A stretch of DNA of 64,000 nucleotides, taken from the NCBI GenBank assembly GCA_001784175.1, contig MFPR01000017.1, forward strand, positions 29,024 to 93,023, in the 5' to 3' direction. Origin of the DNA: Candidatus Lindowbacteria bacterium RIFCSPLOWO2_12_FULL_62_27 (GTDB taxonomy: Bacteria; Lindowbacteria; 2-12-FULL-62-27). Position 1 is the stretch's first letter. Every line of letters starts with the position of its first letter. Position numbers and translations under genes: made by a program. Below the pieces are notes generated by a model, which did no database searches, was not told the origin of the DNA, and was given only the letters and a program-made list of their open reading frames with translations. This document shows, in pieces, positions 2,868 to 56,098 of this stretch.

Positions 2868-2884
2868 TTCGATGAGGCAATTCC

Positions 2885-3931: not shown

Positions 3932-3938
3932 GCGGAGA

Positions 3939-4982: not shown

Positions 4983-4993
4983 CCGATCCGGAT

Positions 4994-7589: not shown

Positions 7590-8308
7590 AGAACGATCTT
7601 CTCTCGGTGTTTAAAGTATTTCGGATGCCATTCATATTCACGCCTTATCCTCTTTCCCGCATAAACGTAGTAGACCTCGGTACCCTCCGGATTGAATTCG
7701 TAGTCGGCGGCTTCCTGTATTTCCACGATTTTTCTAAATTTCCATCTCACCAATTCCCCATATGAATTCAAATATGGCTGCTCGTAAATTTTGAATTCTT
7801 TTCTGAGGCGCCTCTTTGCGTCACTGCCGTCCCTCGCCATGACCAACATGTACCTGTCTTCGTGAGTCTGATTGCCGCTTCGGTGTCCCTCTATTTGGCA
7901 GATGAATCTGGCATGGACGCAGAATAAGATGCGCGCAGGTTTCTGGTACGGCCTTTTCTTAATGCCGGCAATCGCCTCTATCGATATTGAAGTTACTTCC
8001 CTCATTTTCAAAATGATGCCCAAATCTTTGGCGTATATGGCAGCCGAAATTCCACCGGGTGCCTTTGTGGAGCCGATTCGTTGATAATTTCGGTCCGGCC
8101 ACTTTGAAACCGCCCTTCTGTATTTTTCGCGCCGGATTTTTTCCATCAGCTTTACTCTTTCTTTCGGCGGATATGGAAGCAGTTTCTTGAAAGGATCCCT
8201 AAAATAGGCCTGGATCGACAATTGCCTTTTGCCCATGTGAAGAATGGCGGAGGCGGTCCGGCCAAATCTCTCCATACCGTCCAATTTCTCTATAAATTTT
8301 GGCGGCAT
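7586..8308 (-). CDS. hypothetical protein
   Basis: ORF co-oriented and overlapping the beta-propeller gene by 4 bp; ORF-track start at 8407 is TTG, internal ATG at 8308 or 8275 more likely; no known motif. Confidence 0.35.
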   Translation of the reverse strand: MPPKFIEKLDGMERFGRTASAILHMGKRQLSIQAYFRDPFKKLLPYPPKERVKLMEKIRREKYRRAVSKWPDRNYQRIGSTKAPGGISAAIYAKDLGIILKMREVTSISIEAIAGIKKRPYQKPARILFCVHARFICQIEGHRSGNQTHEDRYMLVMARDGSDAKRRLRKEFKIYEQPYLNSYGELVRWKFRKIVEIQEAADYEFNPEGTEVYYVYAGKRIRREYEWHPKYFKHREKIVL

Positions 8309-8486
8309 TAGAATAATACGCAGAGAAAAAATAAAAATAGTGTTACGGCAATGGTGGACCAGATCGACATGCCGCTCTGAATGAAAAAGAAAAAAATAAT
8401 ACTGCAAATGATGAGGCCGGCTACAATTTTTATCTTTAAGAGATTGTCGACGTAAAAATTCGACGGCTTATTTTTATTCTCGTCCA

Positions 8487-9734: not shown

Positions 9735-9747
9735 GAATCCGGAAACC

Positions 9748-10521
9748 TCAGCTTCTCTTGATTATCTCTAAACAACCTCTTTTATATCTGCCCGATTTTT
9801 CCGTCATGACATTAATATCAGTATGAAAACTATCGGAACAAAAGTTAAATTTGCCTTGTTGTTTCTCGGATTTCCAATACTCGAGGCCGGCCATAGTTTC
9901 GATCCTACTGAACATATCCGGCACGACTTTAAGTGGCACGGACGGCATTTTTTCCAATTTCCCGAGTTTTAACAATTCGACTTTTAAGCTGTGTTCTTCG
10001 GGCGAAAATATTATTTGATCCGCGCCCTCCCTGATCGCCTGCAAGAGAATCATATGAACCAATCTGCTAACGGGGGCGTTATGGTGATCTACTATTTCTA
10101 AGTTGAATATTTTCGTGTCGTGCGTTTGCATGTCCTTTATGACTTGTTCTAATGACGTCAAGAGATCAGCCCTGTTTAAGAGTGTCGCATCGTATTGTGC
10201 TATAAGCTGCTCTATAGATTGAACAAAATCCGTACTATCTTCTGCCCTTTCTACATCCTTCCAAAAATCACGAGGGAAATACCCTTGTGCATGATGGGCA
10301 ATGGATCCGGATAGCCGCGTACCATGCGAAACTTCTTGGGCAATTCGAATGTTTATTCCGAGTGCCACAAAAACTATGAGATCCCGATCGAGAGACAAAA
10401 ATCGAACCACGTCTGTCAATCTATATCCTTCCTTGATGAGTTTGGCGAGTTTTGCGAGCCAGATGTATGCATATTTCTTCTTTATAAACTCCGGCGCGAA
10501 TTTAAATAGTTTCAGCCACAT
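9748..10521 (-). CDS. secretion-ATPase N-terminal (N2-like) domain protein without ATPase core; possible truncated gspE-like paralog
   Basis: C-terminal half RLVHMILLQAIREGADQIIFSPEEHSLKVELLKLGKLEKMPSVPLKVVPDMFSRIETMAGLEY matches the N2 region preceding the Walker A in GspE/PilB; no Walker A or Asp/His boxes; directly upstream of a GspF-like gene. Confidence 0.45.
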   Translation of the reverse strand: MWLKLFKFAPEFIKKKYAYIWLAKLAKLIKEGYRLTDVVRFLSLDRDLIVFVALGINIRIAQEVSHGTRLSGSIAHHAQGYFPRDFWKDVERAEDSTDFVQSIEQLIAQYDATLLNRADLLTSLEQVIKDMQTHDTKIFNLEIVDHHNAPVSRLVHMILLQAIREGADQIIFSPEEHSLKVELLKLGKLEKMPSVPLKVVPDMFSRIETMAGLEYWKSEKQQGKFNFCSDSFHTDINVMTEKSGRYKRGCLEIIKRS

Positions 10522-10582
10522 CTTGGCATTTCATCTCCGATAACGAGGATCGAGGCCGACTCAAGTATATCCCATGATGTTT

Positions 10583-11347
10583 TCATGGCGTTGTCTTCCT
10601 TTTGAATTCTGCGATGTCTTTCACTGTTTGATCTATGAGTCCCTCTATTTTCTTATCTTTGATGTCGTGCTCCTTTAGATCCTGCTTGATGTTCGCTAAT
10701 GTCTTGGTGGTATCATCCATAAGTTGATCGAATTGTTTTCTATCCTGTTTTACCTCTTTCTTTACCCACAGATATCCAGCCCATGCAATGATGATGCATG
10801 GTATGGCTACCAGCCACAATCTCGAAGAGGCGGCCTGAAAGCGCATCAATAGTAAAGACGTGATACCGGCTAAAATAACGGCGAATAGGCAGTAGATAAG
10901 TACCACCCGCCGTCGACTTAATCTCTGGCGGAGAACATTATCAGAATCATTTAGAGGGCCCGTTCGTATGAGCTGAATATTGAACTCGTCGACTTCAAGC
11001 TTTATCTCCCCTAGCATATTGTCGAATGTAAGATCGCCCGTGCCGGGGTCATAGGTCAAATCATTAAACATCTCGTCGACGTGGTCATTGCCGTATGTAA
11101 TGACACAGCTTTTCACATTTTTAACGTATAGAAGGTAGTATCCGGAGTGTGGTTCATCTGTCCGTTTGAAAGGGATCTTTAGCAATCTTTGATCGGAATC
11201 GAATTCTAATTCGTTTCGGTGATACCACTGATCGTGAATAACATCGAGCAGCGTACCAATCTGATGCTCTGAAAAGACACCGGAGAACTCCAGAGTCATC
11301 TGAGTGCGGGGCTGTGCGAACGGCGGCGGGGCTTGGAATAGAAACAC
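10583..11347 (-). CDS. hypothetical membrane protein with C-terminal coiled-coil
   Basis: Two predicted transmembrane helices (VVLIYCLFAVILAGITSLLL, LWLVAIPCIIIAWAGYLWV) followed by a K/E/D-rich helical tail. Confidence 0.4.
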   Translation of the reverse strand: MFLFQAPPPFAQPRTQMTLEFSGVFSEHQIGTLLDVIHDQWYHRNELEFDSDQRLLKIPFKRTDEPHSGYYLLYVKNVKSCVITYGNDHVDEMFNDLTYDPGTGDLTFDNMLGEIKLEVDEFNIQLIRTGPLNDSDNVLRQRLSRRRVVLIYCLFAVILAGITSLLLMRFQAASSRLWLVAIPCIIIAWAGYLWVKKEVKQDRKQFDQLMDDTTKTLANIKQDLKEHDIKDKKIEGLIDQTVKDIAEFKRKTTP

Positions 11348-34162: not shown

Positions 34163-35335
34163 ATGCGCGTCAGGGTCATTCAACGAAAGGGCGCTTGGTG
34201 GATCGACTATTACTATCTGGACGAAACGGGCGCTTTGCGAAGAAAATACGAAAAGATCGGCCCGGGCAGGAAATTTGCGGAGACGGTGGCCGCCAAGCGC
34301 CGCGTGGAAATTCTGGAAGGAAAATTTCTGGACCGCCGTCGTTTCAAGCCCATCACGTTTGCGGACTTTATCCGGGAATTCGACGACAAGCACATGCGGT
34401 TTTTGAGAATTTACCGGCATGGCGGCAAGCAGTATCTCCGCCATCTGGTTTCCTTCTTTGGCGCAAGGCAACTCATGTCCATTTCGCAATTCGACGCCGC
34501 GCGGTTCAAGGTCCATTTCATGAGCCGGAAAACGCGCGCTGGAACCCCGCCGGCGAAATCGACCTTCAACCGGTATCTGTCGACTCTCATTTGCATCATG
34601 AACAAAGCGGTCGAATGGGGACATCTCCCGCAAAATCCGCTGTCGCGGGTGAAGAAGGAGCGAGAGGACGAAAAGCCGATGCGAATTTTAACGGCCGCCG
34701 AAAAAGTACGTCTCCTCGAAGTCGCGCTGGAGGATGGCCAGGAAGCGCACTCGCTCATCACGTTGGCGCTCAACACAGGTCTTAGGCGTGGTGATCTTCT
34801 GCGTCTTCAAATGAACGCGGCCATGATGCGTGAGCGAGAAATCCATCTCACGATGCAAAAAACCCGCCACGCCATTCATGTGCCGCTCAACAGAGCCGCC
34901 GAGTCTGCGATCAAAGCGTTGAACCGGGGCGACGACGAATTGTTATTCCCACCGAGGCGCGCGGACTCGAAAGACTCGCGCTGGCACTATGCATTGTGGC
35001 TAAAACTTGCAAATAGGGCCCAACTTCGTTATTGTCGTTTCCATGATTTGCGTCACACCTTCGCCACGGATCTTTTGCGGCGGGGCGTGAACATCAAAGT
35101 GGTCAAGGAGCTCCTGGGTCACCGGTCGATCCAAACGACAATGCGATATTTGCATTTCGTGGAGATCGACCGAAGGGCCGCGGTGGACACGCTGGAACCC
35201 GCCGCCGACGCCCGTGAGCCCCGTATGGCCCGGCAGTTTCCAATGCCAACGAATGCCGACTTACAGAACGCAACTGGAAACCTACTGGAGACCAAATGGA
35301 GACCAGAACGTCAAGTCGAGGAAGCGATCGCATGA
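34163..35335 (+). CDS. int: tyrosine-type site-specific recombinase/integrase
   Basis: C-terminal catalytic region HDLRHTFATDLLRRGVNIKVVKELLGHRSIQTTMRYLH with R, H-x-x-R and Y. Confidence 0.9.
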   Translation: MRVRVIQRKGAWWIDYYYLDETGALRRKYEKIGPGRKFAETVAAKRRVEILEGKFLDRRRFKPITFADFIREFDDKHMRFLRIYRHGGKQYLRHLVSFFGARQLMSISQFDAARFKVHFMSRKTRAGTPPAKSTFNRYLSTLICIMNKAVEWGHLPQNPLSRVKKEREDEKPMRILTAAEKVRLLEVALEDGQEAHSLITLALNTGLRRGDLLRLQMNAAMMREREIHLTMQKTRHAIHVPLNRAAESAIKALNRGDDELLFPPRRADSKDSRWHYALWLKLANRAQLRYCRFHDLRHTFATDLLRRGVNIKVVKELLGHRSIQTTMRYLHFVEIDRRAAVDTLEPAADAREPRMARQFPMPTNADLQNATGNLLETKWRPERQVEEAIA

Positions 35336-35380: not shown

Positions 35381-35464
35381 GGGGAGGTGCTCCAGTGGAC
35401 AACGAGAGCAGACTGTAAATCTGCCGCCCTTCGGGCTACGGAGGTTCGAATCCTCCCCTCCCCA
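35381..35464 (+). tRNA. tRNA-Tyr (anticodon GTA), class II with long variable arm
   Basis: Acceptor stem GGGGAGG/CCTCCCC, anticodon stem GCAGA/TCTGC with loop CTGTAAA, variable-arm hairpin GCCC-ttcg-GGGC, T-arm GGAGG-TTCGAAT-CCTCC, discriminator A; CCA not encoded. Confidence 0.8.
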
Positions 35465-37702: not shown

Positions 37703-39175
37703 ATGAAGAAATGGCTGTGCCTTGGGTTTCTCACGTTGATGGTCCTGGCAGGCCTTGCGGCAGGCGCGCGGGCGAAGAGTCTGGACGGTTTTTATCTCGA
37801 AAGCGCCAGCACGCTGGGCCGCGGATCCTGGGATTTAAAATCCTATCTTGAATTCGGCAGCAACGCCGAGCCTCTGACCATTCCCGGCGCGCTGACCAAC
37901 ACCGGCCGGAACATCGCCGTCAAGGTCAGCACGACCCGCCTGCCCGTGGAGCTGCGGTACGGCCTGTCGGAGGGGTGGGAGATCGGGGGCGACCTGGGAT
38001 TTGAGAGCGACGACGGCGAAGCGGACCCGCCGTCGATTTATCTGGGCAAGAGCGGCCTGCAGAGGATCCGATTTTTCGGCAAATGGAATTTTTTCCAGGA
38101 CGTGGCCGCGATGGCGGATCTGTCGATGTTCGGCGACGAGAAGTTGTATTACGGCCAGGACGGATTTGATTTCGGCCTGAAATTCATCTACGGGCCCGAA
38201 CTCGGCGCCGGCAATCTCATGCTCAATCTCGGGATTCTGCTCAAGGGCGGCGAGGCCGAGTATGCCGACGGGAACTCGAAAATTTCCGGGTCCGCCAAGG
38301 ATTTCGACAACGTGTTCTCCTACGGCATCGGCTACGCCTACCCGTACAGCGACCGATTCACCGGCATCTTTGAGCTGGCTGGATCGTCCTCCCCGTACAA
38401 GGGCGGTTCGGGCGTGAGCACGGAGGATTTGCTGGCGTTGAATCTTGGCGCGCGATACGCGTTCACGGACCAGTTTTCGCTCGAGGGCGGAATCGCCCTG
38501 GGCCTCGCCGACGGCAGCCCGAATTTCCTGCTGAGGGTCGGCATGGACTGGTGGTGGAGCGCTGCGGGCGAATACAGCGAGGCCGCCGAACCGGCGCGTC
38601 CCTGGACGCCTGCCGCCGAGCCGAAGAAATCCGAAAAGGCCGCGCCGGCCTGGACGCCGCCGGAAAGACCGGCCGAGAAACCGGCCGAGAAGAAAGAGCC
38701 GATGGCGCGCGAATCGGCGCCTTACGATGTGCCGCCGACCTATCAGGCGCCCCAAAAAGAAGCGATGCCCGAACGCGCGCCCGTCGTGGCGGCGGAAGCG
38801 CCGGCCGGTCCCTCCACGGACGAGCAGATCCAGTCGCGCGTCGCAAAAGCGGCGGATGCCTTCAACCGGGGGGACTTCGCGACCGCCGTCAGCCACTACG
38901 AGGCGGCGATCCAGTTGAAGAACAACGATCCCGTACTGCACTACAACCTCGCGACCGTGCATTTCCAGCAGAAGCGGTACGAGGACGCCAAAACATACTA
39001 TAAGAACGCGATCACCCTGAATCCGAACGATCCCGAGAGCCATCTGTATCTGGGATACACGCATTATTATCTGAACGACCAGGCGTCGGCGATCCGCGAA
39101 TGGCAGCGGGTGCTCGAGCTGAATCCCGACAACACGCTGGCCATCGAGAATCTGAAAGCCCTCGGCGTCGAGTAG
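37703..39175 (+). CDS. secreted beta-rich domain protein with Pro-rich linker and C-terminal TPR repeats, paralog A
   Basis: Signal peptide; N-terminal domain with alternating hydrophobic beta-like segments; PE-rich linker; three C-terminal TPR units. Confidence 0.6.
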   Translation: MKKWLCLGFLTLMVLAGLAAGARAKSLDGFYLESASTLGRGSWDLKSYLEFGSNAEPLTIPGALTNTGRNIAVKVSTTRLPVELRYGLSEGWEIGGDLGFESDDGEADPPSIYLGKSGLQRIRFFGKWNFFQDVAAMADLSMFGDEKLYYGQDGFDFGLKFIYGPELGAGNLMLNLGILLKGGEAEYADGNSKISGSAKDFDNVFSYGIGYAYPYSDRFTGIFELAGSSSPYKGGSGVSTEDLLALNLGARYAFTDQFSLEGGIALGLADGSPNFLLRVGMDWWWSAAGEYSEAAEPARPWTPAAEPKKSEKAAPAWTPPERPAEKPAEKKEPMARESAPYDVPPTYQAPQKEAMPERAPVVAAEAPAGPSTDEQIQSRVAKAADAFNRGDFATAVSHYEAAIQLKNNDPVLHYNLATVHFQQKRYEDAKTYYKNAITLNPNDPESHLYLGYTHYYLNDQASAIREWQRVLELNPDNTLAIENLKALGVE

Positions 39176-39220: not shown

Positions 39221-40648
39221 ATGAATATCCATCCAATGATCTTCAGGCGACTGGTGGGGGTTGGTGTGTTCTTTGCGATGCTCTGTCTGAGCCCGGCGGA
39301 GGTTTCGGCCCGGAGCTTGAACGGCGCTTATCTCGAGCAGGCCGGCACGCTGAACGACGGCGCGTGGGCGCTCAAGTCCTACGTGGAACTCGGCAGCAAG
39401 GCGAAACCCATCAAAGTAACCAATGCGGTGACCGGGACGGGCGATGTCGAGCTCAAGACGGGAACGATCCGCCTTCCGGTGGAGCTTCGGTACGGCCTGA
39501 CGGACAAATGGGAGCTGGGCGGCGACCTGGGCCTGGAGATCGACAACGGCGGGATCATTGTGGGTTCAAAAGGTTTTCTGGATGGCAGCGGCCTGCAGGG
39601 AATCCGGATGTATGGCAAATGGAATTTCATCGAGAATCTGGCGACGAAGCTGGAGCTGTCCTTTGCCGGAGACGAGTCGCTGTACTGGACGCTGGGGAGC
39701 TTTGATCTCGGCATCAAATTCATGTTCAGCCCGGAGATCGGCCCCGGCCAGCTCAACACAAATTTGGGATTCGTGTCCAAGAGCGGCGACGTCAGCGTGT
39801 CGAGCGCCCTCGTCGTCGATTTCGGAACGATGTTCATGTACGGCGTCGGCTATACGTGGCCGTGGGGCGATCGGATCGGCTGGACGGTGGAGCTGGCCGG
39901 ATCGTCCTCGCCGTACAAGGGCGGCACGGGCGTGTCCGGCAAGAACGCGCGTTTGAGTTTGCTGTTCGGCGGGCAATACGAGCTCAGCGAGCGCGTGTCG
40001 GCTGACGCGTCGGTGTCGTTCGGCCTGGCGAAGGGCAGCCCGCGGTTCATGTTGAAGGGCGGGATGGAATGGCTGTGGGGCGCCGTGGAGGAAGCGCGGC
40101 GGACGGCGGCGGCCGCAACCCCGCAGCAGCCCTCCAAGGCATGGACGCCGTCCACGACGCCGGCGGGGGCGCCCGCGACCGGCGCGACGACCGCCGCAAC
40201 GCCGGCCAAGCCCAAGGGTCCGACCTACGAGGCGCCGGCCGCCTATGAAGTTCCCAAGCCGCCCCCCCCGCCGCCGAGCGGTCCGACGACCGCGGAACTT
40301 TTGCAGCAGCGGATCGCGGACGCCCAATCGTCGTTCAGCCGCGGCGATTTCGTGACCGCGGCCGCGCAGTACGAAGCGGCGATCAAACTGAAGGACAACG
40401 ATCCGGTGCTGCACTACAATCTCGCGACCGCGTACTTTCAGTTAAAAAGATATTCGGACGCCAAGATCTATTACAAGAACGCCGTAACCTACAATCCGGC
40501 CGATCCCGACAGTCACCTGTATCTGGGCTATTGCTACTATTATCTGCAGGATCAGCAGTCCGCGATCCGCGAGTGGCAGAAGGTTCTGGAGACGGATCCG
40601 TCCAACTCGCTGGCGCGAGAAAATCTCAAATCCTTGGGCGTTGAATAG
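39221..40648 (+). CDS. secreted beta-rich domain protein with Pro-rich linker and C-terminal TPR repeats, paralog B
   Basis: Same architecture as upstream gene, shared blocks (RLPVELRYGL, ELAGSSSPYKGG, VLHYNLATV). Confidence 0.6.
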   Translation: MNIHPMIFRRLVGVGVFFAMLCLSPAEVSARSLNGAYLEQAGTLNDGAWALKSYVELGSKAKPIKVTNAVTGTGDVELKTGTIRLPVELRYGLTDKWELGGDLGLEIDNGGIIVGSKGFLDGSGLQGIRMYGKWNFIENLATKLELSFAGDESLYWTLGSFDLGIKFMFSPEIGPGQLNTNLGFVSKSGDVSVSSALVVDFGTMFMYGVGYTWPWGDRIGWTVELAGSSSPYKGGTGVSGKNARLSLLFGGQYELSERVSADASVSFGLAKGSPRFMLKGGMEWLWGAVEEARRTAAAATPQQPSKAWTPSTTPAGAPATGATTAATPAKPKGPTYEAPAAYEVPKPPPPPPSGPTTAELLQQRIADAQSSFSRGDFVTAAAQYEAAIKLKDNDPVLHYNLATAYFQLKRYSDAKIYYKNAVTYNPADPDSHLYLGYCYYYLQDQQSAIREWQKVLETDPSNSLARENLKSLGVE

Positions 40649-41353: not shown

Positions 41354-44164
41354 GTGGAGGTATCGGCGGAATCCCTGCTGACCATCGTCCGGGTTATGGT
41401 CGCCGAGGTTCACAGGGGCGACGCAGCTGCCGCCGTCGTGTCGCTGGACAGCACGCTGGACGGCGATCTCGGATTGGACAGCCTGGGCCGGGTGGAGCTT
41501 CTGATGCGGATCGAGCGGAGCTTCGGCGTCCGCCTGCCGGAAGGGGTGCTCTCGACGGCGGAGACGCCGCGCGATCTTTTGCGCGCGGCGCTGATCGCCA
41601 AAGGCGAGCCGGTCTTGGCGCAGTCCGTGGAGATGAGGAGCGGTCCCGGCGAGAAGGTGGAATCCTCTCCGGCCGGCGCCGGAACGTTGACGGAAGTTCT
41701 CGCCTGGCACGCGCGGGCCCATCCCGACCGGACGCATCTCACTCTCTATCTCGACGACGAGCGGGAAGTCGACATCACGTACCGGGACCTGTGGGACCGC
41801 GCCCGGGCGGTCGCGCGCGGACTGCAGGCGCACGATCTTCAGCCGGGCCAGTCGGTCGGCATCATGCAGCCGACGGGTCTGGATTTTTTTGTGAGTTTTT
41901 ATGGCGTGCTCATCGCCGGCGGCGCGCCGGTTCCGCTGTATCCGCCGGCGCGTCTGAGCCAAATTGAAGACCACCTGCGCCGCCAGTCGCGGATTCTGAC
42001 CAACGCCCTCGCCGTCGAACTCATCACGATGCCCGAGGCCAAGCCGCTCGCGCTCCTCATCAAGTCCCAGGTCGAAACGCTCCGGCACGTCTCGACGGTT
42101 CAGGAATTGTCCGAGAATTCCGGAACTTACACCGAACCTCCCCTCAAGACGCAGGACATCGCGCTTCTGCAATACACCTCGGGCAGCACCGGCCATCCGA
42201 AAGGCGTCGTGCTGACGCATGCGAATCTCCTGGCGAACATCCGGACGATGGGCCAGGCGTTGAAAGTGGATTCGACCGACGTGGTCGTGAGCTGGCTGCC
42301 GCTGTACCATGACATGGGCCTCATCGGCGCCTGGTTCGGGAGCCTCCACCATGCGGCCCGGCTGGTCATCATGTCTCCGCTCACGTTTCTGTCCCGGCCT
42401 TCCCGGTGGCTCTGGGCGATCCACCGGCACCGGGGAACGATTTCGGCCGCGCCGAATTTCGCGTACGAATTCTGCCTGCGAAAAATAGACGACCGCGAGA
42501 TCGAGGGACTCGACCTCAGCTCATGGCGCGCCGCCTTGAACGGCGCCGAACCCGTCCGGCCCGAAACCGTGCAGCGGTTCATCGAGCGCTATTCCAAGCA
42601 CGGATTTCGCGCCGAGTCGGTCATGCCGGTGTACGGTCTGGCCGAATGCTCCCTTGGCCTGTCTTTCCCGCCGCTCGGCAGGCCGCCGCTGATCGACCGG
42701 ATCGAGCGCGAGCTTTTTGTGACCCAGGGGCTGGCCGTGCCGGCCGCGCCGGGCGACCCTGACGCGCTGGCCTTCGTTTCGTGCGGCCGGCCGATCGCCG
42801 GCCACCAGATCCGGATCGTGGACGCGACCGGCCGGGAAGTGATCGACCGCGCGGAGGGCCGGCTGCAATTCCGGGGGCCGTCGGCGACCAGCGGATATTT
42901 TCGGAACGCCGGGGAGACGCGGCGTCTCTTTCAAGACGAGTGGCTCGAATCGGGCGACGTGGCGTACATGGCCGAGGGCAACGTGTATCTGACGAGCCGG
43001 ACCAAGGACATCATCATCCGCGCCGGCCACAACATTTATCCGTACGAGCTGGAGGACGCCATCGGCGATGTCCCGGGCATTCGAAAGGGCTGCGTTGCGG
43101 TGTTCAGCAGTCCCGATCCCGTGCTCGGCACGGAACGGCTGGTCGTGCTGGCCGAAACCCGCGAGCCGGCCGCCGGCGTCGGGGAAACTCTCCGCGCCCG
43201 GATCAACACGCTTGCGATCGATCTCATCGGCATGCCGCCGGATGATATTGTTCTCGTCCCGCCTCACACCGTTCTCAAAACCTCCAGCGGAAAAATCCGC
43301 CGCGCCGCCAGCCGCGAACTCTATGAGCAGGGTCTCATCGGCCGTCGGCAGCGCGCGGTCTGGATCCAGATTGCGCGGCTGGCCTGGGCGAGCCTTCGGC
43401 CCGCGTTGCGCCGCGCGTCGCGCGCGGCCACGGACGTGTTGTTTGCCGGCTATGTTCTCGCGCTTTTCGGCCTGTGTTTCGTCCCGGCATGGCTTGGCGC
43501 GGTGTTCCTGCCGCGGCGGTCCTGGCGCCGCGCGGCAGCCTATGGTGCGGCCCGGTGCCTGGTGCGGCTGAGCGGCGTGCGGGTCGCGGTTCGGGGGCGG
43601 GAGAATCTTCCGCTCGAAGGTCCCTGCCTGATCGTTTCCAATCATGCGAGTTATCTCGACGCGATCGTACTTGCGGCGATCGTGCCGACGCGGTTCGGGT
43701 ACACCGCCAAGCGCGAACTGGCCGGGCGATTTCTCAGCCGCGTGGGACTTCAGCGGCTTGGTTTCCAGTTTCTGGAGCGTTTTGACATTGAGCGGACGAT
43801 GGACGACACGCGGCGGATCGCGGCATCGGTCCGGAAGGGCCATCCGCTGATTTTTTTCCCGGAGGGAACCTTTGGCCGGATGCCGGGCCTGCGAGCGTTT
43901 CACATGGGCGCATTTCTCATTGCCGCCGAAGGAACGGTTCCAGTCGTCCCCGTGTCCATTCGCGGGACGCGGTCGGTCCTGCGGGACGGCCACTGGTTTC
44001 CCCGGCGTTCTTCCATCCGGATCACGATCGGCGCGCCGATTGCGCCCGACGGCCAGGACTGGTCCGCCGCGATCAAACTCCGCGACGCCGCCCGCGCCGT
44101 GATCCTTCGGCACTGCGGCGAACCCGACGTCGGCCAGGCGGTATCCGGGTCTCCCTCGCCTTGA
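41354..44164 (+). CDS. tri-domain fusion: acyl-carrier-protein domain, fatty acyl-AMP ligase/AMP-binding domain, lysophospholipid acyltransferase (PlsC-like) domain
   Basis: ACP motif GDLGLDSLGRVEL; AMP-binding YTSGSTGHPKGV; acyltransferase NHASYLDA (H-x4-D) and FPEGT; start set to GTG after the SLT stop, ATG at 41396 is an alternative. Confidence 0.7.
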   Translation: MEVSAESLLTIVRVMVAEVHRGDAAAAVVSLDSTLDGDLGLDSLGRVELLMRIERSFGVRLPEGVLSTAETPRDLLRAALIAKGEPVLAQSVEMRSGPGEKVESSPAGAGTLTEVLAWHARAHPDRTHLTLYLDDEREVDITYRDLWDRARAVARGLQAHDLQPGQSVGIMQPTGLDFFVSFYGVLIAGGAPVPLYPPARLSQIEDHLRRQSRILTNALAVELITMPEAKPLALLIKSQVETLRHVSTVQELSENSGTYTEPPLKTQDIALLQYTSGSTGHPKGVVLTHANLLANIRTMGQALKVDSTDVVVSWLPLYHDMGLIGAWFGSLHHAARLVIMSPLTFLSRPSRWLWAIHRHRGTISAAPNFAYEFCLRKIDDREIEGLDLSSWRAALNGAEPVRPETVQRFIERYSKHGFRAESVMPVYGLAECSLGLSFPPLGRPPLIDRIERELFVTQGLAVPAAPGDPDALAFVSCGRPIAGHQIRIVDATGREVIDRAEGRLQFRGPSATSGYFRNAGETRRLFQDEWLESGDVAYMAEGNVYLTSRTKDIIIRAGHNIYPYELEDAIGDVPGIRKGCVAVFSSPDPVLGTERLVVLAETREPAAGVGETLRARINTLAIDLIGMPPDDIVLVPPHTVLKTSSGKIRRAASRELYEQGLIGRRQRAVWIQIARLAWASLRPALRRASRAATDVLFAGYVLALFGLCFVPAWLGAVFLPRRSWRRAAAYGAARCLVRLSGVRVAVRGRENLPLEGPCLIVSNHASYLDAIVLAAIVPTRFGYTAKRELAGRFLSRVGLQRLGFQFLERFDIERTMDDTRRIAASVRKGHPLIFFPEGTFGRMPGLRAFHMGAFLIAAEGTVPVVPVSIRGTRSVLRDGHWFPRRSSIRITIGAPIAPDGQDWSAAIKLRDAARAVILRHCGEPDVGQAVSGSPSP

Positions 44165-44180: not shown

Positions 44181-45056
44181 ATGCTACGAGGAAACATGAA
44201 AGATTTCCCGCATGAGGAGAGATTGCTCGAGGCCGCGCGGGTTGTGCGCGCGCGATCGCCGGCGCGAAAGATCAAAGGCGCGCCGGTGGCCGGGCTGGAT
44301 CTCGGCACGGCCGACGTGGTGTTTCTGGTGCTGGACGAAACCGGCGCGCCGGTGTGCGGGTATCTCGAATGGTCGGAAGTGGTGCGGGACGGCGTGGTGG
44401 TCGATTTTGCGGGCGCGCGCCGGATCGTGCGGAAAATGGTGGAGGACGCGGAAGCGGCGCTGGGCCAGTCGATCGAATCGTGTTCGACCGGGTATCCGCC
44501 GGGGACCGACCCGGACCTCAGTGTGAATGTGGTGCGGGACGCGGGCCTGCGGATCGCCGCCGTGTTGGACGAGCCGACGGCCGCCGCGACGGCGCTGGGC
44601 ATCCGGGACGGGATCGTGGTCGACATCGGTGGCGGCACCACCGGCATCTCCATTCTGCAGGAGGGCAAGGTCCGGTACAGCGCGGACGAGGCGACGGGCG
44701 GCCGCCATCTGTCTCTGGTGCTGGCCGGCGCGTACAAGATTTCGTATGACGAAGCGGAGCGGCGCAAGCGGAGCGGCGAAGGCCGGCAATTTCTGAACGT
44801 GGTCCGGCCGGTGATCGAAAAAATGGCGTCGATCGTCCAGGCCCACATTCGCGGCGCGTCCGAAAGCCTCCCGATCGTTCTTGTCGGCGGCACGCCGCAA
44901 CTGGAGGGCTTCAAAGAGATATTTGAAGAAGAACTGGCCCGGCCCGTGACGGTGCCCCAAGAGCCGCTCTTCGCCACGCCGCTCGGAATTGCGCTGTCGG
45001 GACTGCCGGCGCGCCGCGCGTCGCCCTCGCCGGTCGCGCAGGGTTGCGCGGTCTGA
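44181..45056 (+). CDS. eutJ: EutJ-like actin-fold (Hsp70-type) ATPase
   Basis: Phosphate-binding motifs AGLDLGTADV and VDIGGGTTGI. Confidence 0.65.
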   Translation: MLRGNMKDFPHEERLLEAARVVRARSPARKIKGAPVAGLDLGTADVVFLVLDETGAPVCGYLEWSEVVRDGVVVDFAGARRIVRKMVEDAEAALGQSIESCSTGYPPGTDPDLSVNVVRDAGLRIAAVLDEPTAAATALGIRDGIVVDIGGGTTGISILQEGKVRYSADEATGGRHLSLVLAGAYKISYDEAERRKRSGEGRQFLNVVRPVIEKMASIVQAHIRGASESLPIVLVGGTPQLEGFKEIFEEELARPVTVPQEPLFATPLGIALSGLPARRASPSPVAQGCAV

Positions 45057-45063
45057 TTCCTCG

Positions 45064-45741
45064 ATGACCGGCGCCGCGATTCAGGCCGCCGTCGAACAGG
45101 CGGTCCGGCGCGTGTTCGTGTCGGCGGATCCGCCCGCCGCGTCCTCCGCGCCCGCCGCCGTCACCGTGCGCCGCGTTGTGCCGGTCGGCGTATCGAGCCG
45201 GCATCTGCATTTGCAGCCGGACCACGTGGAGGCGCTGTACGGCAAGGGTCACCGGCTGACGAAGCTGCGGGACCTGATTCAGCCGGGGCAGTTCGCCTGC
45301 AAGGAAACCGTGACGTTGATCGGCCCGCAAGGTAAGATCGCCCAAGTGCGGGTGCTGGGTCCGGAGCGGAAGCAGACGCAGATCGAGGCGGCCGTCACGG
45401 ACCTCGTGGCGCTGGGCGTGATGGCCCCGCTGCGGCTGTCCGGGGACCTGGCCGGCTCGGCGCCGCTGAAGATCCGCGGGCCGCGCGGTCTCGTCGAGAT
45501 TCGTGAGGGCCTGATCATCGCGCACCGGCATCTGCACATCGGCGGCGACGAGTCGAGCCGGTACGGCGTCCAGACCGGCGACCGCGTGCGGATCCGCACG
45601 TCGGGCTCGCGGCCGGTCCTGTTCGAAGATGTGATCGTCCGGGCCGGCGGCGATCACCGGATGGAATTTCATCTGGACACGGACGAGGCCAACGCCGCCG
45701 GCGTCAAGAACGGCGACCTCGCCGAAATCATCGGAGGCTGA
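45064..45741 (+). CDS. pduL: phosphate acyltransferase PduL-type with N-terminal amphipathic extension
   Basis: Duplicated VGVSSRHLHL and IIAHRHLHIG motifs; N-terminal AAIQAAVEQAVRRVF helix. Confidence 0.8.
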   Translation: MTGAAIQAAVEQAVRRVFVSADPPAASSAPAAVTVRRVVPVGVSSRHLHLQPDHVEALYGKGHRLTKLRDLIQPGQFACKETVTLIGPQGKIAQVRVLGPERKQTQIEAAVTDLVALGVMAPLRLSGDLAGSAPLKIRGPRGLVEIREGLIIAHRHLHIGGDESSRYGVQTGDRVRIRTSGSRPVLFEDVIVRAGGDHRMEFHLDTDEANAAGVKNGDLAEIIGG

Positions 45742-45743
45742 TC

Positions 45744-46055
45744 ATGCAACTCGCGCGCGTCATCGGAAACGTCGTGGCGACCCGCAAGGTCGACAAAATC
45801 ATGCGGTACAAACTGCTCGTGGTCGAGCCCATCGACCTGACCGGCAAGGGTTCCGGCAAGCACATGGTGGCCATCGACGCCGTGCAGGCCGGCCCGGGCG
45901 AGATCGTGTTCATCGTGGAGGGCAGCTCCGCGAGGATGGCGGTGCCGGAAAAGGACGTGCCGATCGACACGGCCATCATCGCGATCGTCGACGCGATCGA
46001 GCACGACGGCCGGATCGTCTTCCGGAAAACCGTCCAGGAATTCGCGGCGGTCTGA
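45744..46055 (+). CDS. BMC vertex protein (BMC-P; EutN/CcmL/PduN family)
   Basis: MQLARVIGNVVAT ... KLLVVEP ... VAIDAVQAGPGEIVFIVEGSSAR ... IVD matches the EutN/CcmL pattern. Confidence 0.8.
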   Translation: MQLARVIGNVVATRKVDKIMRYKLLVVEPIDLTGKGSGKHMVAIDAVQAGPGEIVFIVEGSSARMAVPEKDVPIDTAIIAIVDAIEHDGRIVFRKTVQEFAAV

Positions 46056-46056
46056 C

Positions 46057-46533
46057 ATGCTGCTCGTGCTCGGATCGGACCATGGGGGATTCGGATTGAA
46101 GACAGAGATCAAGACGTTCCTGGCGGCGCAGGGCCATTCGGTCAAGGATTTCGGCGCGTTTTCGAAGGACCCCGTCGATTATCCGGACATCGCGTTTCTC
46201 GTGGCGCAGGCGGTGGCGCGCGGGGAGTACGAGCGCGGGATCCTGGTCGACACGACCGGAATTGCGTCGGCGATCGTGGCAAACAAAGTATTCGGCATCC
46301 GCGCGACGCCCTGCGCGGACCTCACCACCCTCAAATCCTCGCGGGAACACAACGACGCCAACGTCCTGTGTCTGGGCGCCGGCCTCGTCCACGCCGACCA
46401 GGCCCGCGAATTCCTCGGCGTGTGGCTGTCGACGCCCTTCGCCGGCGGCCGGCACGCGCGCCGGGTCGACAAAATATGCCAAGTGGAAGAAATGACGATG
46501 AAACGCACCGGCGTCCATTCGGTCAGAGGTTAG
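46057..46533 (+). CDS. rpiB: sugar-phosphate isomerase RpiB/LacA/LacB family
   Basis: LGSDHGGFGLK, DTTGIASAIVANK, REHNDANVL motifs. Confidence 0.85.
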   Translation: MLLVLGSDHGGFGLKTEIKTFLAAQGHSVKDFGAFSKDPVDYPDIAFLVAQAVARGEYERGILVDTTGIASAIVANKVFGIRATPCADLTTLKSSREHNDANVLCLGAGLVHADQAREFLGVWLSTPFAGGRHARRVDKICQVEEMTMKRTGVHSVRG

Positions 46534-46535
46534 CG

Positions 46536-46817
46536 TTGGAGCTTGCGCGCGTGTTCGGGCGGGTCTGGGCGACGGCGAAGGATCCTAAACTCGAACAGAC
46601 CAAACTCCTCCTCGTGCAGCCGGTCGATTTTTATCTGAAGGACCGCGGCAAGCCCTTCATCGCAGTGGAAAGCGTGGACGCGGGCGCCGGCGAGATCGTG
46701 CTCCTGGCCCGCGGCCGGGAGGCGACGTTCCCGTTCGGCCTCGAGCCAAAGGCCCCGCCGGTCGACAAGTGCTGCGTCGGGGTCGTGGACGATGTCTATT
46801 ACGATGAGAACGCCTGA
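46536..46817 (+). CDS. BMC vertex protein (BMC-P), second paralog
   Basis: TTG-initiated ORF just after the rpiB stop; ELARVFGRVWAT ... KLLLVQP ... VESVDAGAGEIVLLARG; the longer ORF-track frame overlapping rpiB was not used. Confidence 0.65.
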   Translation: MELARVFGRVWATAKDPKLEQTKLLLVQPVDFYLKDRGKPFIAVESVDAGAGEIVLLARGREATFPFGLEPKAPPVDKCCVGVVDDVYYDENA

Positions 46818-46826
46818 TTCGATGCC

Positions 46827-47195
46827 ATGTTGATCTGTCGCGTGAAGGGCAACGTCGTGGCGACGCAGAAGGACGCGCGTCTCGACTCCTGGAAGATCCT
46901 CATCGTCCAGCCCATCGGGATGGGCGGCGAGGCGCAGGGCGAGCCGTTCATGTCCGTGGACGCCGCCCAGGCCGGCGTCGGGGATCTGGCGCTGGTGGCG
47001 CGGCATGGCGCCGCGGCCCGCGCCGCGATGATGGCGATTCGAAAGTCCGACGAGTACGCGCCGGCGAACGCCGTCATCGTCGGCATTATCGATGAGGTCA
47101 CCGATTACCGCGCGCCGGCCGGGTCAGTGCCTCCGGCCGAAAGTTCCGCCGCCCGCCGTCGAGGGCGGCCGAAGGGATCGAAGAACAAGAGATGA
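46827..47195 (+). CDS. BMC vertex protein (BMC-P), third paralog with basic C-terminal tail
   Basis: [13 protein letters not shown] ... KILIVQP ... [18 protein letters not shown] ... IVGIIDE; C-terminal [13 protein letters not shown]. Confidence 0.7.
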
Positions 47196-48091
47196 TTACG
47201 GAAGAGCTGGTCGAGCGAATCGCCGAGGCGGTCCTCCGGGAATTGGAGCGCACCGGAAATCTGCCGCGGGCGGACGACGCCGTCGTTTCGGCCTGTTTCG
47301 AGCATGACCGGGATGACGGAGAAATCTGCTGTGTCTGCTGGGGAAAAAATCCCGAGGGGGTCCAGGAATTTCTGGACGCCGGCGCGTCGCGGTTCGGCAT
47401 CCATCTCGGCCAGACCGTCACGGCGCCCACCCTGGCGAAATACATCGATCACACCCTGCTCAAGCCGCAGACCACCAAGGCCGAAATCGAGCAGCTCTGC
47501 AAGGAGGCGAAGGAATACGGGTTCGCATCGGTGTGCATCAATCCCTTCTGGGTCCCGCTCTGCGCCCAGCTCCTGAAGGGCAGCGGCGTCAAGGTCTGCA
47601 CCGTGATCGGATTTCCGCTCGGCGCGACGAGCACCGCCGCCAAGGTCGGCGAGACGCAGGACGCGATCCGAAACGGCGCCGAGGAGGTCGACATGGTGAT
47701 CAACGTGGGCGCGCTCAAGGCCGGCGACCGCGACACGGTGCGGCGCGACATTGCGGAGGTGAAGAAGGCGGCCGGTCACCGGATTCTCAAGGTTATTCTT
47801 GAAACGGGACTTCTCACAGACGAGGAAAAAATGACCGCCTGTCAGCTCTGCAAGGACGCCGGCGCCGACTTCGTCAAAACCTCCACCGGATTCGGGCCCG
47901 GCGGCGCCACGCTCGGCGACATTGCGCTCATGCGCCGCGTCGTCGGCCCGCAGATGGGCGTCAAGGCCTCCGGCGGCGTGCGGGACACCAAGACGGCCAA
48001 ACAGATGATCGAGATGGGCGCGACGCGCATCGGGGCTTCCGCCGGCATCGCCATCGTCAAGGGAGAGGAAGGAAAGGGCGCCGGGTATTAA
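47192..48091 (+). CDS. deoC: deoxyribose-phosphate aldolase with about 90-residue N-terminal extension
   Basis: DeoC core begins at [12 protein letters not shown]; catalytic-Lys region DFVKTSTGF; N-terminal [19 protein letters not shown] amphipathic helix. Confidence 0.85.
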
Positions 48092-48097
48092 TTTGAA

Positions 48098-49729
48098 ATG
48101 AAGGTCAAGAGACGCCCGTCTCTTCCCGCGGTCCCGCCGCCGCGTTTTTTGAACATCCCGGTTCATTATCTTGTTGCGCTCTTCCTGTTCGTTGTTCCCT
48201 CGGCTCTTTTCTTTCAAGTCCGGCATCACGAATTTTTCGACGTCGACGACCCGCCCTACGTGACGCAGAACGCGCATGTTCAAATGGGCCTCGCGCGGGA
48301 GAGCATCGGGTGGGCGTTTACCGCAATCCACTCCGCCAACTGGCATCCGCTCACATGGCTGTCTCACATGCTGGACTGCCGGCTCTTCGGGCTCGATCCG
48401 TTTCATCACCATCTCACGAACGTCTATCTTCACAGCGCGAACGCCGTCCTGTTGTTTCTGCTTCTCCGGATGCTCACCGGCGCGCTCTGGCGGGCGGCCT
48501 TTGTGGCCGCGGTCTTCGCCGTTCATCCTCTGGCCGTCGAGTCGGTGGCGTGGGTGGCCGAGCGCAAGAATGTCCTCAGCACGTTTTTCTGGTTTCTCAC
48601 GATGGCGCTTTATGCCCGATACGTCCGCCGGCCGACGGGTCGGGCCTACGGGTGGGTGGCGCTGTCCCTGGCGCTGGGCCTCATGGCCAAACCGATGCTC
48701 GTGACCCTGCCGGTCGTTCTGTTCCTGATGGACTTCTGGCCGTTGAACCGCGCCGGGCCGCCGCGTTCGGTCCAATCCCTGATCTTCGAGAAAATCCCGC
48801 TCATGGCGCTGGCGGCCGCTTCATCCGCGATTACCATCGTCGCCCAGAAGTCGGACGCGGCCATGTACTCGCTCAAGGCGATTTCCCTGTCGGAGCGGCT
48901 CGTCAACGCGCTGCTGAGTTTCATCAAGTACATCGGCCTCATGGTATGGCCGGTGGATCTCGCCTTCTTCTACCCGTACGATCGGGCGGCGCTTACGGGG
49001 TTGAACGCCCTGGGATTTGGGGCCGCCCTGGCCGCCGTCACGGGGATGGCCGTCGCGTCATTCCGTCGCCGGCCGTATCTGGCCTTCGGGTGGTTCTGGT
49101 ACCTGGTGACGCTCCTGCCGGTCATCGGGCTGGTTCAGGTCGGGTCGCAGGCGCTCGCGGACCGCTACACCTACGTGCCGCTGATCGGCCTGTACGTAAT
49201 CATCGCGTGGGGAGTCCACGACCTGACCTGCGGGGTGAGGGGCGCGAGAATCACGGCGGCCGTCGCGGCCTTCGTCGTGATTGCGGCGCTCGCGCGGGCC
49301 ACGTGGGTCCAGACCGGACTTTGGCGTGACAGCGTCACGATGTACACGCACGCCATCCGGGTGACCCGGGACAACGACATGGCGCTCTACAATCTCGGGA
49401 ACCTCTATCTGAAATCCGGCCGGTACGCCGACGCCGTCGAGCATTACTCGGAATCGGTCCGCATCAACGATCGCGATCCGTGGGTCCTCAACAATCTCGG
49501 ATACGCCCTGCACCGCGCCGGAAACCGGAAGGAGGCCGTCGTCCAGTACACGAAGGCGATCCAACTGAAACCGGATTACGGCCGGGCCCGATACAATCTC
49601 GGCAACGCCCTCGCCGAAGAGGGAAATTACGCGGAGGCCGAGAAACAGTTCGCCGAAGCCGTGCGGTACGATCCGGCCAACCAGCACGCGCGCGCGAATC
49701 TGGAGAAAGTCCGGGCTATTCTCCGATGA
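48098..49729 (+). CDS. polytopic membrane protein with C-terminal TPR repeats (TMTC/DUF1736-like, putative protein O-mannosyltransferase family)
   Basis: About ten hydrophobic helices followed by three TPR units ([20 protein letters not shown] ...). Confidence 0.6.
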
Positions 49730-54002: not shown

Positions 54003-54419
54003 ATGGCTTCGGAGATTGCCGTAAGTTCCGCCGTATCGTTTTTCCAGAACATTCCCAAAACGCCCGGCAAGCCGCTGGACCTGACGTTCAGCACCAAGAC
54101 CACGAGTTCCGACATCGCCGGCGACGCGCTCAAGTTCGCGGACCAGCTTGTCACGCTCGTCAATCAAACCGAGGGCACCGACACCGACACGACAACGGTC
54201 AACATTGACGAGTTCACGCGGCTGGCCAGTGGCGACCGCATCAAGAAATTTTCACAGATTACCGACACCGCTCAGAAAAGCCTCATTCAGGAAACGTTCG
54301 AGGACATCACCAAAGGCCGGCCCTTGGCCACCGCGTCGGACCTCGCCGAGTATCTGCGATTCCGGGACGGCAGGGACGGGACGACCGACGGCAAGGCCGC
54401 CATCAATTTTCTGATATAA
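54003..54419 (+). CDS. hypothetical protein
   Basis: 138-aa ORF, T/D-rich, no motif recognised. Confidence 0.35.
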   Translation: MASEIAVSSAVSFFQNIPKTPGKPLDLTFSTKTTSSDIAGDALKFADQLVTLVNQTEGTDTDTTTVNIDEFTRLASGDRIKKFSQITDTAQKSLIQETFEDITKGRPLATASDLAEYLRFRDGRDGTTDGKAAINFLI

Positions 54420-56052
54420 GCTCTTCCAGCGCGGTGCCGTCGAGCCCGTCCGGCGTCGCCACGCCCAGAATGCGCGCGAGGGTCGGCGCAAGGTCCACGG
54501 TGCGGACCGGCCGGTTCGCCGTCTTCGGCGCCGCCTGCCAGCCATAAAACAGGAGCGGCACGCGGGCGTCGTAGTCGTACGGCGATCCATGATTGGCGCC
54601 GCGCGGCGCGCCCTGCGTGATCAGATACGGTTTGGGGATGAGGTACAGGTCGGCGCCTTTTTCGGGATGGAACGAGTGAAGCATCTGTTGGCCGACGGGA
54701 TTGAGATCCCGTGGATGGAGAAGTTCCTCGCGGTCCAAGATATGCGCGATCCACGTTTCCGTAGACGCGAGGAGCCGGACCTCCTCGTAGAGATCCTGCG
54801 GATCGATCCGGCGCCGCGCAAGTTCCTCGTGATCGAAATGTATGTTCTCCTGGCCTCGGAACAGAAACAGCCGTGCCGCCGACTCGTATTTTTTTTCCAA
54901 TTCGTCGAAGAGCCGCGTCCGGAACGCCTTGACCTCGGCCGACACCCGCGCCGCCGGCAGACCCTTCGACCGGCAGACTTCCGCCAGCGGCATGACGCCG
55001 TGGTCGCTGGTCAACACGAGAAGTACACGCCCGCGGCCGAATCGCTGCTCCACGAATTGCACGAACGCTCCAAGTTCCCGGTCCACCCGGATCGCCGCGT
55101 CCATCGCCTCCTGGCTGTTGGGGCCGAAGGCATGGCCGAGAACGTCGAACGCGGACAGGCTGACCGCGAGGAGGTCGGGGTGGTCGTCCAGCCCGATCCG
55201 GGTCGACTCGATCAGGTGCCGCGCCAGCTTCACCGTCAACTCATCCAACCAGGGAAACGCCATGAAGGCCCCGAATCCATCGGAAGCCGGCCGGCCGGTC
55301 AGCCGGTGGGGGAACACCGGCGAGTCTTCATCCCTCGAAATCATATTTTCTCCCGGCGCGTCGTCCGCGCCGGCGTAGGTTCGGTAGAGCTTTTCGTCCT
55401 TGAGCGCCCTCTGCCAGTCCTTTCCGAAGAACGGCTCCACCCGGTTGCGCGCGTTAAAGATCTGGACGGCTTTCGGAATCGTGTCGGCATAATAGGTGCT
55501 GGTCGTGAAGCCGCCTGCCTGGGGGTGAAACCAGATCGCTCCATCGGGCCGCTGTCCTCCCAGAAGAACGGCCGAACGGTCCTTGCCCGCGACGGAGTAG
55601 ACGAGGGACTGCGAGTCGGCCTCTTTCATCCAATCGCCCAGGGCCGTCGCCTGGACGTTCCGGTACGAAGCGCCCCGGCCGTCCGCGCCCAAAATCCGCG
55701 ACTGGCGGTCTTCGACGGAGTACACGATCCGGCGTTCGGTCCGGTCATAAAATTCGTTGGCCGGCACGCCGGCCGGTCCGGGATGGCGGCCGGACAGGAG
55801 CACGAAATGTCCGGGCGCGGTCTGGGTCAACGCATGATCGTGGCGCGCCTGGAGAAACCGCAGCCCGCGATCGCGAAACGTCTTGAACGCGCCCGTAAAC
55901 ACCGGCCCCAGCCGGTCCAGCAGATCAGGGGTGAGCTGATCGACGACGATGACCACCACCAGCCGGGGCGGCGCCGCGTTTTTCGGGACGGCCAAAGCGA
56001 CCCCGGCGGCGCAGACAACGCCGGCGAGGATGATCCAAAATCGCGATCGCAT
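54403..56052 (-). CDS. alkaline phosphatase superfamily protein (nucleotide pyrophosphatase/phosphodiesterase-like), secreted
   Basis: Signal peptide after MRSRFWIIL; metal-site motifs VVDQLTPD and LTSDHG. Confidence 0.7.
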   Translation of the reverse strand: MRSRFWIILAGVVCAAGVALAVPKNAAPPRLVVVIVVDQLTPDLLDRLGPVFTGAFKTFRDRGLRFLQARHDHALTQTAPGHFVLLSGRHPGPAGVPANEFYDRTERRIVYSVEDRQSRILGADGRGASYRNVQATALGDWMKEADSQSLVYSVAGKDRSAVLLGGQRPDGAIWFHPQAGGFTTSTYYADTIPKAVQIFNARNRVEPFFGKDWQRALKDEKLYRTYAGADDAPGENMISRDEDSPVFPHRLTGRPASDGFGAFMAFPWLDELTVKLARHLIESTRIGLDDHPDLLAVSLSAFDVLGHAFGPNSQEAMDAAIRVDRELGAFVQFVEQRFGRGRVLLVLTSDHGVMPLAEVCRSKGLPAARVSAEVKAFRTRLFDELEKKYESAARLFLFRGQENIHFDHEELARRRIDPQDLYEEVRLLASTETWIAHILDREELLHPRDLNPVGQQMLHSFHPEKGADLYLIPKPYLITQGAPRGANHGSPYDYDARVPLLFYGWQAAPKTANRPVRTVDLAPTLARILGVATPDGLDGTALEELISEN

Positions 56053-56098
56053 GAGGGTGACCCTATCCCAAAAGGCGGCCTGCGGCAATCACTTGCCC

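Follow-up and report, generated by a model that had tools for sequence, protein, structure and literature searches.

Gene content of the operon

A 64,000-nucleotide stretch of the genome of Candidatus Lindowbacteria bacterium RIFCSPLOWO2_12_FULL_62_27 (assembly GCA_001784175.1, contig MFPR01000017.1, positions 29,024 to 93,023; the whole stretch is called the window below) carries an operon of seven genes related to bacterial microcompartments (BMCs). The genes lie on the forward strand between window positions 44196 and 48091, in the order EutJ, PduL, BMC-P1, RpiB, BMC-P2, BMC-P3 and DeoC, with an intergenic spacing of -4 to +9 nt. The operon has a central position on a 232 kb scaffold of a metagenome-assembled genome (MAG) from Rifle aquifer groundwater, and its proteins are deposited as OGH60614-OGH60617 with locus tags A3G34_10820 to A3G34_10835. 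A preliminary description, made from the DNA letters, had recognized EutJ-like, PduL, RpiB and DeoC genes interleaved with three EutN/CcmL-family genes. These identifications were confirmed, as all seven proteins pass curated family cut-offs in Pfam and NCBIfam.

The first gene encodes an EutJ-family ATPase of the actin/Hsp70 fold (44196..45056, 286 aa), which matches the NF011660 equivalog family at 326.7 bits (cut-off 182) and has further Pfam matches to FtsA, MreB and HSP70. Its start, as in the public gene call, is the ATG at 44196, with GAGGAA 5 nt upstream. It is followed by a PduL-type phosphotransacylase (PTAC; 45064..45741, 225 aa), identified by PF06130 (2.3e-67) and NF011652 (238 bits, cut-off 209). 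Ribose-5-phosphate isomerase B, or RpiB (46057..46533, 158 aa), matches PF02502 (4.2e-49) and TIGR01120 (147.4 bits, cut-off 138.65) and is without terminal extension. The last gene encodes the deoxyribose-phosphate aldolase DeoC (47192..48091, 299 aa), with matches to PF01791 (1.1e-22) and to the TIGR00126 equivalog family (304.2 bits, cut-off 117.3).

The remaining three genes encode vertex (BMC-P) proteins: BMC-P1 (A3G34_10820, OGH60614, A0A1F6LMU2; 45744..46055, 103 aa), BMC-P2 (A3G34_10830; 46536..46817, 93 aa, TTG start, MELARV...; the NCBI gene model gives the same length) and BMC-P3 (A3G34_10835; 46827..47195, 122 aa). Against the EutN_CcmL profile PF03319, whose gathering cut-off is 25 bits, they score 102.7, 79.0 and 75.2 bits (1.6e-29, 3.9e-22 and 6.1e-21, respectively), and the profile check that the preliminary description had proposed is therefore passed by all three. 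In a PDB sequence search, each of them matches solved BMC pentamers (5V74 BMC-P, EutN 2HD3, CcmL and 4JW0 among the hits). The best match of BMC-P1 is the BMC-P of the HO shell (5V74, 1.4e-16), BMC-P2 matches EutN and CcmL, and BMC-P3 matches CcmL and BMC-P. The three proteins are thus predicted pentamers of the BMC-P family. Because their mutual identity is only 39-40% (39% between BMC-P1 and BMC-P2), they are old paralogues and not recent duplicates. In the AlphaFold model of BMC-P3, the core (residues 1-92) forms a beta-barrel with a pLDDT of 72-83, and it is followed by an unstructured tail with a pLDDT of ~50 and no secondary structure.

Two of the enzymes carry N-terminal extensions resembling encapsulation peptides (EPs). 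The extension of PduL comprises ~38 aa, with an EP-like helix (AAIQAAVEQAVRRVF, hydrophobic moment 0.53) and then a Pro/Ala/Ser linker, and the NF011652 match begins at residue 39. That of DeoC is 79 aa long (47192-47430), with the TIGR00126 match beginning at residue 81. Residues 2-21 of DeoC are predicted to form an EP-like amphipathic helix whose hydrophobic moment reaches 0.85 over a 14-residue stretch. The peptides of PduP, PduD and EutC have moments of 0.47-0.76. An alignment with homologues from Eisenbacteria, Bryobacterales and other groups reveals that the DeoC helix is conserved and the subsequent linker variable. Both N-termini have the composition of encapsulation peptides, an amphipathic helix of ~15-20 residues and a linker outside the catalytic domain, and are predicted to act in targeting. 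Such tags argue for real encapsulation and hence for a real shell. A search with the DeoC extension alone for other similarly tagged cargo returned zero matches.

Beyond the helix and linker, residues 34-50 of DeoC contain a Cys/His motif, C-x3-H-x7-C-C-x-C. This segment is conserved, reading HDxxTCERCRNWGV in the Eisenbacteria DeoC homologues, and may be a small metal-binding module. Comparable Cys-rich add-ons on other BMC proteins are mentioned in the BMC catalogue of Sutter et al. 2021 (PMC8217296).

A DeoC-based scan of genome collections mostly matched housekeeping DeoC of Bacillota. DeoC proteins with the same EP-like helix were also observed in Ca. Eisenbacteria (four loci and others) and in Bryobacterales (two loci), where the gene stands alone or with RpiB only. 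No BMC shell genes are present within 10 kb of these solitary genes. In Eisenbacteria, the catalogued MIC7 type has shell genes and aldehyde dehydrogenase without a signature enzyme (PMC8217296), and the distal EP-tagged DeoC may be the signature enzyme missing from it.

Missing hexamer and dispersed shell genes

The operon lacks a neighbouring gene for a shell hexamer (BMC-H) and one for an aldehyde dehydrogenase. When the window was searched by tblastn with four BMC-H queries (PduA, EutM, CcmK2 and an HO-type BMC-H), the best E-value was 0.14. A hidden Markov model (HMM) built from 11 BMC-domain sequences, run with --max on every stop-to-stop segment of 30 aa or longer from the six frames (1140 segments), detected no PF00936-type domain (best E = 2.6). 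Because all segments of this length were scanned, open reading frames (ORFs) shorter than 60 codons are covered as well. None of them encodes BMC-H, and the idea that small ORFs conceal a permuted or very short BMC-H was rejected on the basis of this run. Among public gene calls with precomputed Pfam annotation, neither PF00936 nor PF00171 occurs in the window, the 10 kb upstream or the 8 kb downstream. The survey extends over ~82 kb of scaffold in total, the last 6 kb being covered by an additional check. The preliminary description had reported both genes missing from the window, and the tblastn, HMM and Pfam results agree in bearing this out. A homologue search with the BMC-H of a related triplet locus yielded, in the best 120 of 8000 candidates, exclusively near-identical proteins of an Acidobacteria type and none from Lindowbacteria. 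Because no reading frame contains a BMC-H, the locus is not a main locus by the catalogue's definition (PMC8217296), and is hence a satellite.

Shell genes are recorded at other places in the genome. BMC-P1 (A3G34_10820) is labelled "fragmented (sat) (omitted)" in the tree files of the catalogue, and two further proteins from other loci are labelled "fragmented (sat)": a BMC-Tdp, A3G34_09790 (205 aa), and a PduT-like BMC-Ts, A3G34_14855 (182 aa) (PMC8217296). Since the catalogue lists these two genes, PF00936 shell tiles of the BMC-T kind are present elsewhere in the Lindowbacteria genome. The label and the two BMC-T genes support the earlier proposal that the operon is a satellite or that its hexamers are encoded elsewhere.

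The enzyme and vertex content further supports the resemblance to sugar-phosphate-utilising (SPU) loci that had been proposed. SPU loci are defined by pfam01791, pfam02502 and at least three BMC-P, with members of the grey and orange clades always adjacent (Sutter et al. 2021, PMC8217296, Supplementary Data 2). DeoC and RpiB supply the two enzyme families, and the locus has three distinct BMC-P, two of which, BMC-P2 and BMC-P3, are adjacent and stand upstream of DeoC, like in other SPU loci. BMC-P1 belongs to clade dirtyPink3 (best HMM P_dirtyPink3_true-pvmH), which lies outside grey and orange (PMC8217296). An EP-bearing pfam00171 aldehyde dehydrogenase, an SPU core enzyme, is absent from the window and 18 kb of flank.

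Comparison with relatives provides further evidence. GCA_016202645.1 and an SRR22387819 contig share the gene order RuvX-YceG-TPR-SLT-EutJ-PTAC-P-RpiB-P-P-DeoC, and the stretch SLT-EutJ-PTAC-P-RpiB-P-P-DeoC is visible in the available sequence of CAZHRJ01. No PF00936 gene lies beside the operon in the three relatives, within flanks of ~3-10 kb. Against these relatives, each of the seven genes has a ratio of nonsynonymous to synonymous substitution rates (dN/dS) within 0.05-0.21, with dS at 0.7-1.4. For the vertex genes it is 0.08-0.13 (BMC-P1), 0.05-0.09 (BMC-P2) and 0.15-0.20 (BMC-P3). Because synteny is kept in three relatives, the genes are under purifying selection and DeoC and PduL bear EP-like helices, the operon is best regarded as functional and not as a relic. 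In contig CAZHRJ010000014.1, from the closest GTDB genome, the P2-P3-DeoC end of the operon is repeated four times in alternating orientation. These palindromic repeats look like a co-assembly artefact and not a real duplication.

Taken together, the operon is likely to contribute vertices and cargo to an SPU-like metabolosome whose genes are dispersed over the Ca. Lindowbacteria genome. Following the published SPU model, DeoC would cleave 2-deoxyribose-5-phosphate within the shell into glyceraldehyde-3-phosphate and acetaldehyde, and a distally encoded, encapsulated CoA-acylating aldehyde dehydrogenase would convert the acetaldehyde into acetyl-CoA. PduL would then regenerate CoA, making acetyl-phosphate, and RpiB would interconvert pentose phosphates. 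EutJ could serve as an accessory ATPase or chaperone. The three BMC-P would cap the twelve shell vertices, with BMC-H and BMC-T from distal loci forming the facets.

Several observations weigh against this interpretation. Most other lineages have a BMC-H beside the triplet. A scan of JGI metagenomes with the BMC-P3 family gave 25 loci in which the P3-like gene is flanked by 3 kb or more on either side; BMC-H lies within 6 kb in 21 of them, typically as H-P-P-P, and four are P-only. For the Lindowbacteria genome, neither a single-domain BMC-H nor an aldehyde dehydrogenase was found in the ~82 kb of scaffold searched, the MAG is possibly incomplete, and the catalogue's authors excluded it from typing (PMC8217296). 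The EP status of DeoC and PduL is a sequence pattern and was not assigned by the catalogue's EP HMMs, and the SPU pathway is itself known only from bioinformatic prediction. The hexamer-less layout is a minority yet recognised state, and it is stable within the lineage.

The same absence of a hexamer could also mean that the shell contains no canonical BMC-H at all, its facets consisting solely of pseudohexameric BMC-T (Ts and Tdp) encoded elsewhere and capped by the three BMC-P. One BMC-Ts and one BMC-Tdp are indeed the only PF00936 proteins documented for the genome, and none of four lineage members has a BMC-H in the ~3-10 kb flanking the operon. The lack of a BMC-H entry for this genome is uninformative, however, given the accessible part of the catalogue's BMC-H tree, and every BMC type in the catalogue has at least one basal BMC-H (PMC8217296). 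In addition, the catalogue uses "fragmented" here and "incomplete" for some other genomes, a choice of words that suggests parts present but dispersed. A shell without hexamers is therefore considered improbable.

The operon might instead be a decaying SPU remnant in a lineage without compartments, in which the enzymes are cytosolic and the BMC-P genes are being lost. Such decay would account for BMC-H and aldehyde dehydrogenase not being found nearby, and PduL would have no obvious local substrate supply if the dehydrogenase is missing. It is very hard to reconcile with three BMC-P that remain intact in four diverged genomes at a dN/dS of 0.05-0.20, with synonymous sites near saturation, with the retention of the EP-like extensions and with the persistence of further shell genes in the genome, as catalogued. 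Least credible is that the hexamers seem to be missing through an assembly or binning artefact, for instance because a contig ended within the locus or because the scaffold is a chimera. The window does show a sharp GC shift, from 45-57% before 35 kb to 63-68% after, and mis-assembly is evident in the closest GTDB contig from its palindromic operon repeats. The operon nevertheless sits mid-scaffold, its housekeeping flanks recur in the same order in independent assemblies from other samples, and the GC shift is that of a genomic island whose boundary, marked by an integrase and tRNA-Tyr, is 9 kb off the operon.

The C-terminal tail of BMC-P3

The tail of BMC-P3 comprises ~30 residues, is predicted to be unstructured and ends in a 13-residue motif (47154..47192, forward strand) that resembles an AT-hook. 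Of 177,635 PDB sequences it matches just one, the HMG-I/Y DNA-binding domain 2 (2EZD), solved bound to DNA. The E-value is just 0.31 because the motif is so short, and the Pfam AT_hook model, applied to the tail, gave no match to this short motif. Ten contiguous residues are identical to AT-hook 2 of HMGA1 (2EZD). With an R-G-R-P core, basic flanks and a disordered segment, the tail has the features of an AT-hook and is a predicted DNA-binding motif.

RGRP is present in 12 of 13 tailed homologues, and the linkers vary in length and sequence. One of the 12 proteins, with 44% identity, is encoded in an aldolase II-BMC-H-P-P-P locus. The motif is rare in the wider family. In a set of 150 representatives at 50% identity, only the lineage's own representative and one other protein have (K/R)GRP at the C-terminus. 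The tail AT-hook occurs in three of 162 metagenome BMC-P ORFs, two of the three belonging to this lineage.

The C-terminus of BMC-P can be reached from outside the shell, because assembled shells can be pulled down intact by a Strep tag at the C-terminus of the HO BMC-P (PMC10853475). One possibility, put forward tentatively, is that the AT-hook of BMC-P3 points into the cytosol and directly binds the organelle to chromosomal DNA. The compartment would then be positioned and inherited by way of the nucleoid, with no need for a McdAB-like system, and one of the unexplained "extra" pentamer paralogues of the BMC-P triplet would gain a function. In the papers searched, no text joining "AT-hook" with "bacterial microcompartment" and no description of an AT-hook in a shell protein was found. 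If the AT-hook binds DNA, the retention of three pentamer paralogues in many microcompartments, for which twelve pentamers suffice, would have a testable explanation, and an AT-hook on a vertex protein would be a new way to anchor a bacterial organelle to the nucleoid. The tail is the sole element of the locus that might repay experimental follow-up. The resemblance to HMGA1 is a 10-residue identity to a minor-groove-binding hook in a solved complex; unlike in HMGA1, the hook is bacterial, single and placed on a predicted pentameric shell protein. The resemblance is probably convergent.

Genomic surroundings and related microcompartment loci

Immediately downstream of the operon, a GC-rich hairpin followed by TTTTTT lies at 48127-48150, 36 nt past the DeoC stop and within the first codons of the annotated TPR/PMT_2 gene. 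The hairpin may terminate the operon; alternatively, the annotated start of the following gene may be wrong. A promoter and terminator scan of 40-50.5 kb gave nothing above shuffled expectation.

Upstream, a 936-aa gene (41354-44164) that fuses an ACP domain, a fatty-acyl-AMP ligase and an acyltransferase separates the SLT transglycosylase from EutJ. Because SLT directly precedes EutJ in three related genomes, this gene looks like an insertion specific to the present genome. Further upstream, two tandem paralogues of 470-490 aa (37703-39175 and 39221-40648) have a signal peptide-like N-terminus, a Pro/Ala-rich middle and C-terminal TPR; they are kept upstream of SLT in the relatives. Positions 1-35464 of the window form a low-GC (45-57%) mobile island beside the 63-68% GC core. 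The island encodes several ATPase and platform proteins like those of type II secretion systems and type IV pili, a Mu-like portal, type I restriction-modification (HsdR/M/S), an AAA ATPase with an S8 peptidase, RadC, a SEC-C protein and HTH regulators. At the border of the island, 9 kb from the operon, a tyrosine integrase (34163-35335) immediately precedes tRNA-Tyr (35381-35464). No att repeat of the tRNA-Tyr delimiting the island was found in the accessible sequence. On the other side of the operon, a Type I phosphodiesterase/nucleotide pyrophosphatase gene lies at 54403-56088 on the reverse strand, and in GCA_016202645.1 such a gene stands immediately 3' of DeoC (locus L089, 11400-12242). 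These neighbours are weakly consistent with a nucleic-acid-salvage role of the pathway.

Comparison with the catalogued locus types shows that the locus fits the SPU-like fragmented layouts. The preliminary description had implied more novelty than is warranted, as split SPU-like layouts have already been described (SPU7, FRAG5, FRAG7, FRAG8, and the MIC3 and HO satellites; PMC8217296), and SPU1, 2, 3 and 6 are split at times (PMC8217296). For the field the finding is an ordinary one: Ca. Lindowbacteria is one more lineage with an SPU-like microcompartment encoded in pieces. Gene content is now given for a genome that the reference catalogue left untyped. For annotation pipelines there is a caution, in that three vertex genes with EP-tagged enzymes and no hexamer gene should be taken neither as an error nor as a new kind of shell.

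An SPU-like cluster was also observed on an archaeal chromosome, CP070760.1 (Ca. Heimdallarchaeota bin272, ~2300-10750), with PduL, several BMC-H/T, BMC-P and RpiB-P-P-DeoC. It appears to match the archaeal microcompartments reported in bioRxiv 10.1101/2025.11.08.687404. A 423 kb JGI contig (sample 3300075153) from a distant relative carries a single cluster, BMC-H-P-aldehyde dehydrogenase-PduS-like-BMC-Ts-P-P-DeoC-BMC-Tdp-aldolase II-TIM. It shares the P-P-DeoC module, and the BMC-P directly upstream of its DeoC is 47% identical to BMC-P3. The JGI cluster differs in being without PTAC, RpiB and EutJ, and this BMC-P has no C-terminal tail. This contiguous layout is presumably the ancestral form.

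The satellites of HO type I and MIC3 are similar in that BMC-P genes and an aldolase are separated from a main locus with BMC-H and aldehyde dehydrogenase. Their aldolase is of class II (pfam00596) and not DeoC, and they are without RpiB, PTAC and EutJ. SPU7, whose satellite consists of a grey/orange BMC-P pair and DeoC (PMC8217296), is closer. It shares the split layout, with a BMC-P pair and a pfam01791 aldolase apart from BMC-H, and has PTAC and pfam02502 in its enzyme set. Its PTAC bears an N-terminal EP, as the Lindowbacteria PduL has an EP-like N-terminus. In SPU7, however, PTAC, RpiB, aldehyde dehydrogenase and the third BMC-P share the main locus with BMC-H, whereas in Lindowbacteria the operon with DeoC also holds PTAC, RpiB and the entire BMC-P triplet; the phylum is also different.

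FRAG5, FRAG7 and FRAG8 have shell genes at several genomic places and a BMC-P triplet. The same arrangement holds here, with A3G34_09790, A3G34_10820 and A3G34_14855 at scattered loci according to the catalogue and the triplet observed directly. FRAG5 and FRAG8 have SPU signature enzymes, and FRAG5 has both BMC-Tdp and BMC-Ts, like the Lindowbacteria genome. In FRAG7 the triplet is at one place, with BMC-H, PduS/T, aldehyde dehydrogenase and PTAC at another. Unlike in these three types, the Lindowbacteria PTAC and EutJ accompany the triplet, and the third BMC-P is PvmH-like (dirtyPink3) and not of the green clade. The hosts of FRAG5, FRAG7 and FRAG8 are Planctomycetes, Gemmatimonadetes and Hydrogenedentes. 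The Lindowbacteria locus is therefore an untyped member of the SPU-like fragmented layouts already described as SPU7 and FRAG5/7/8.

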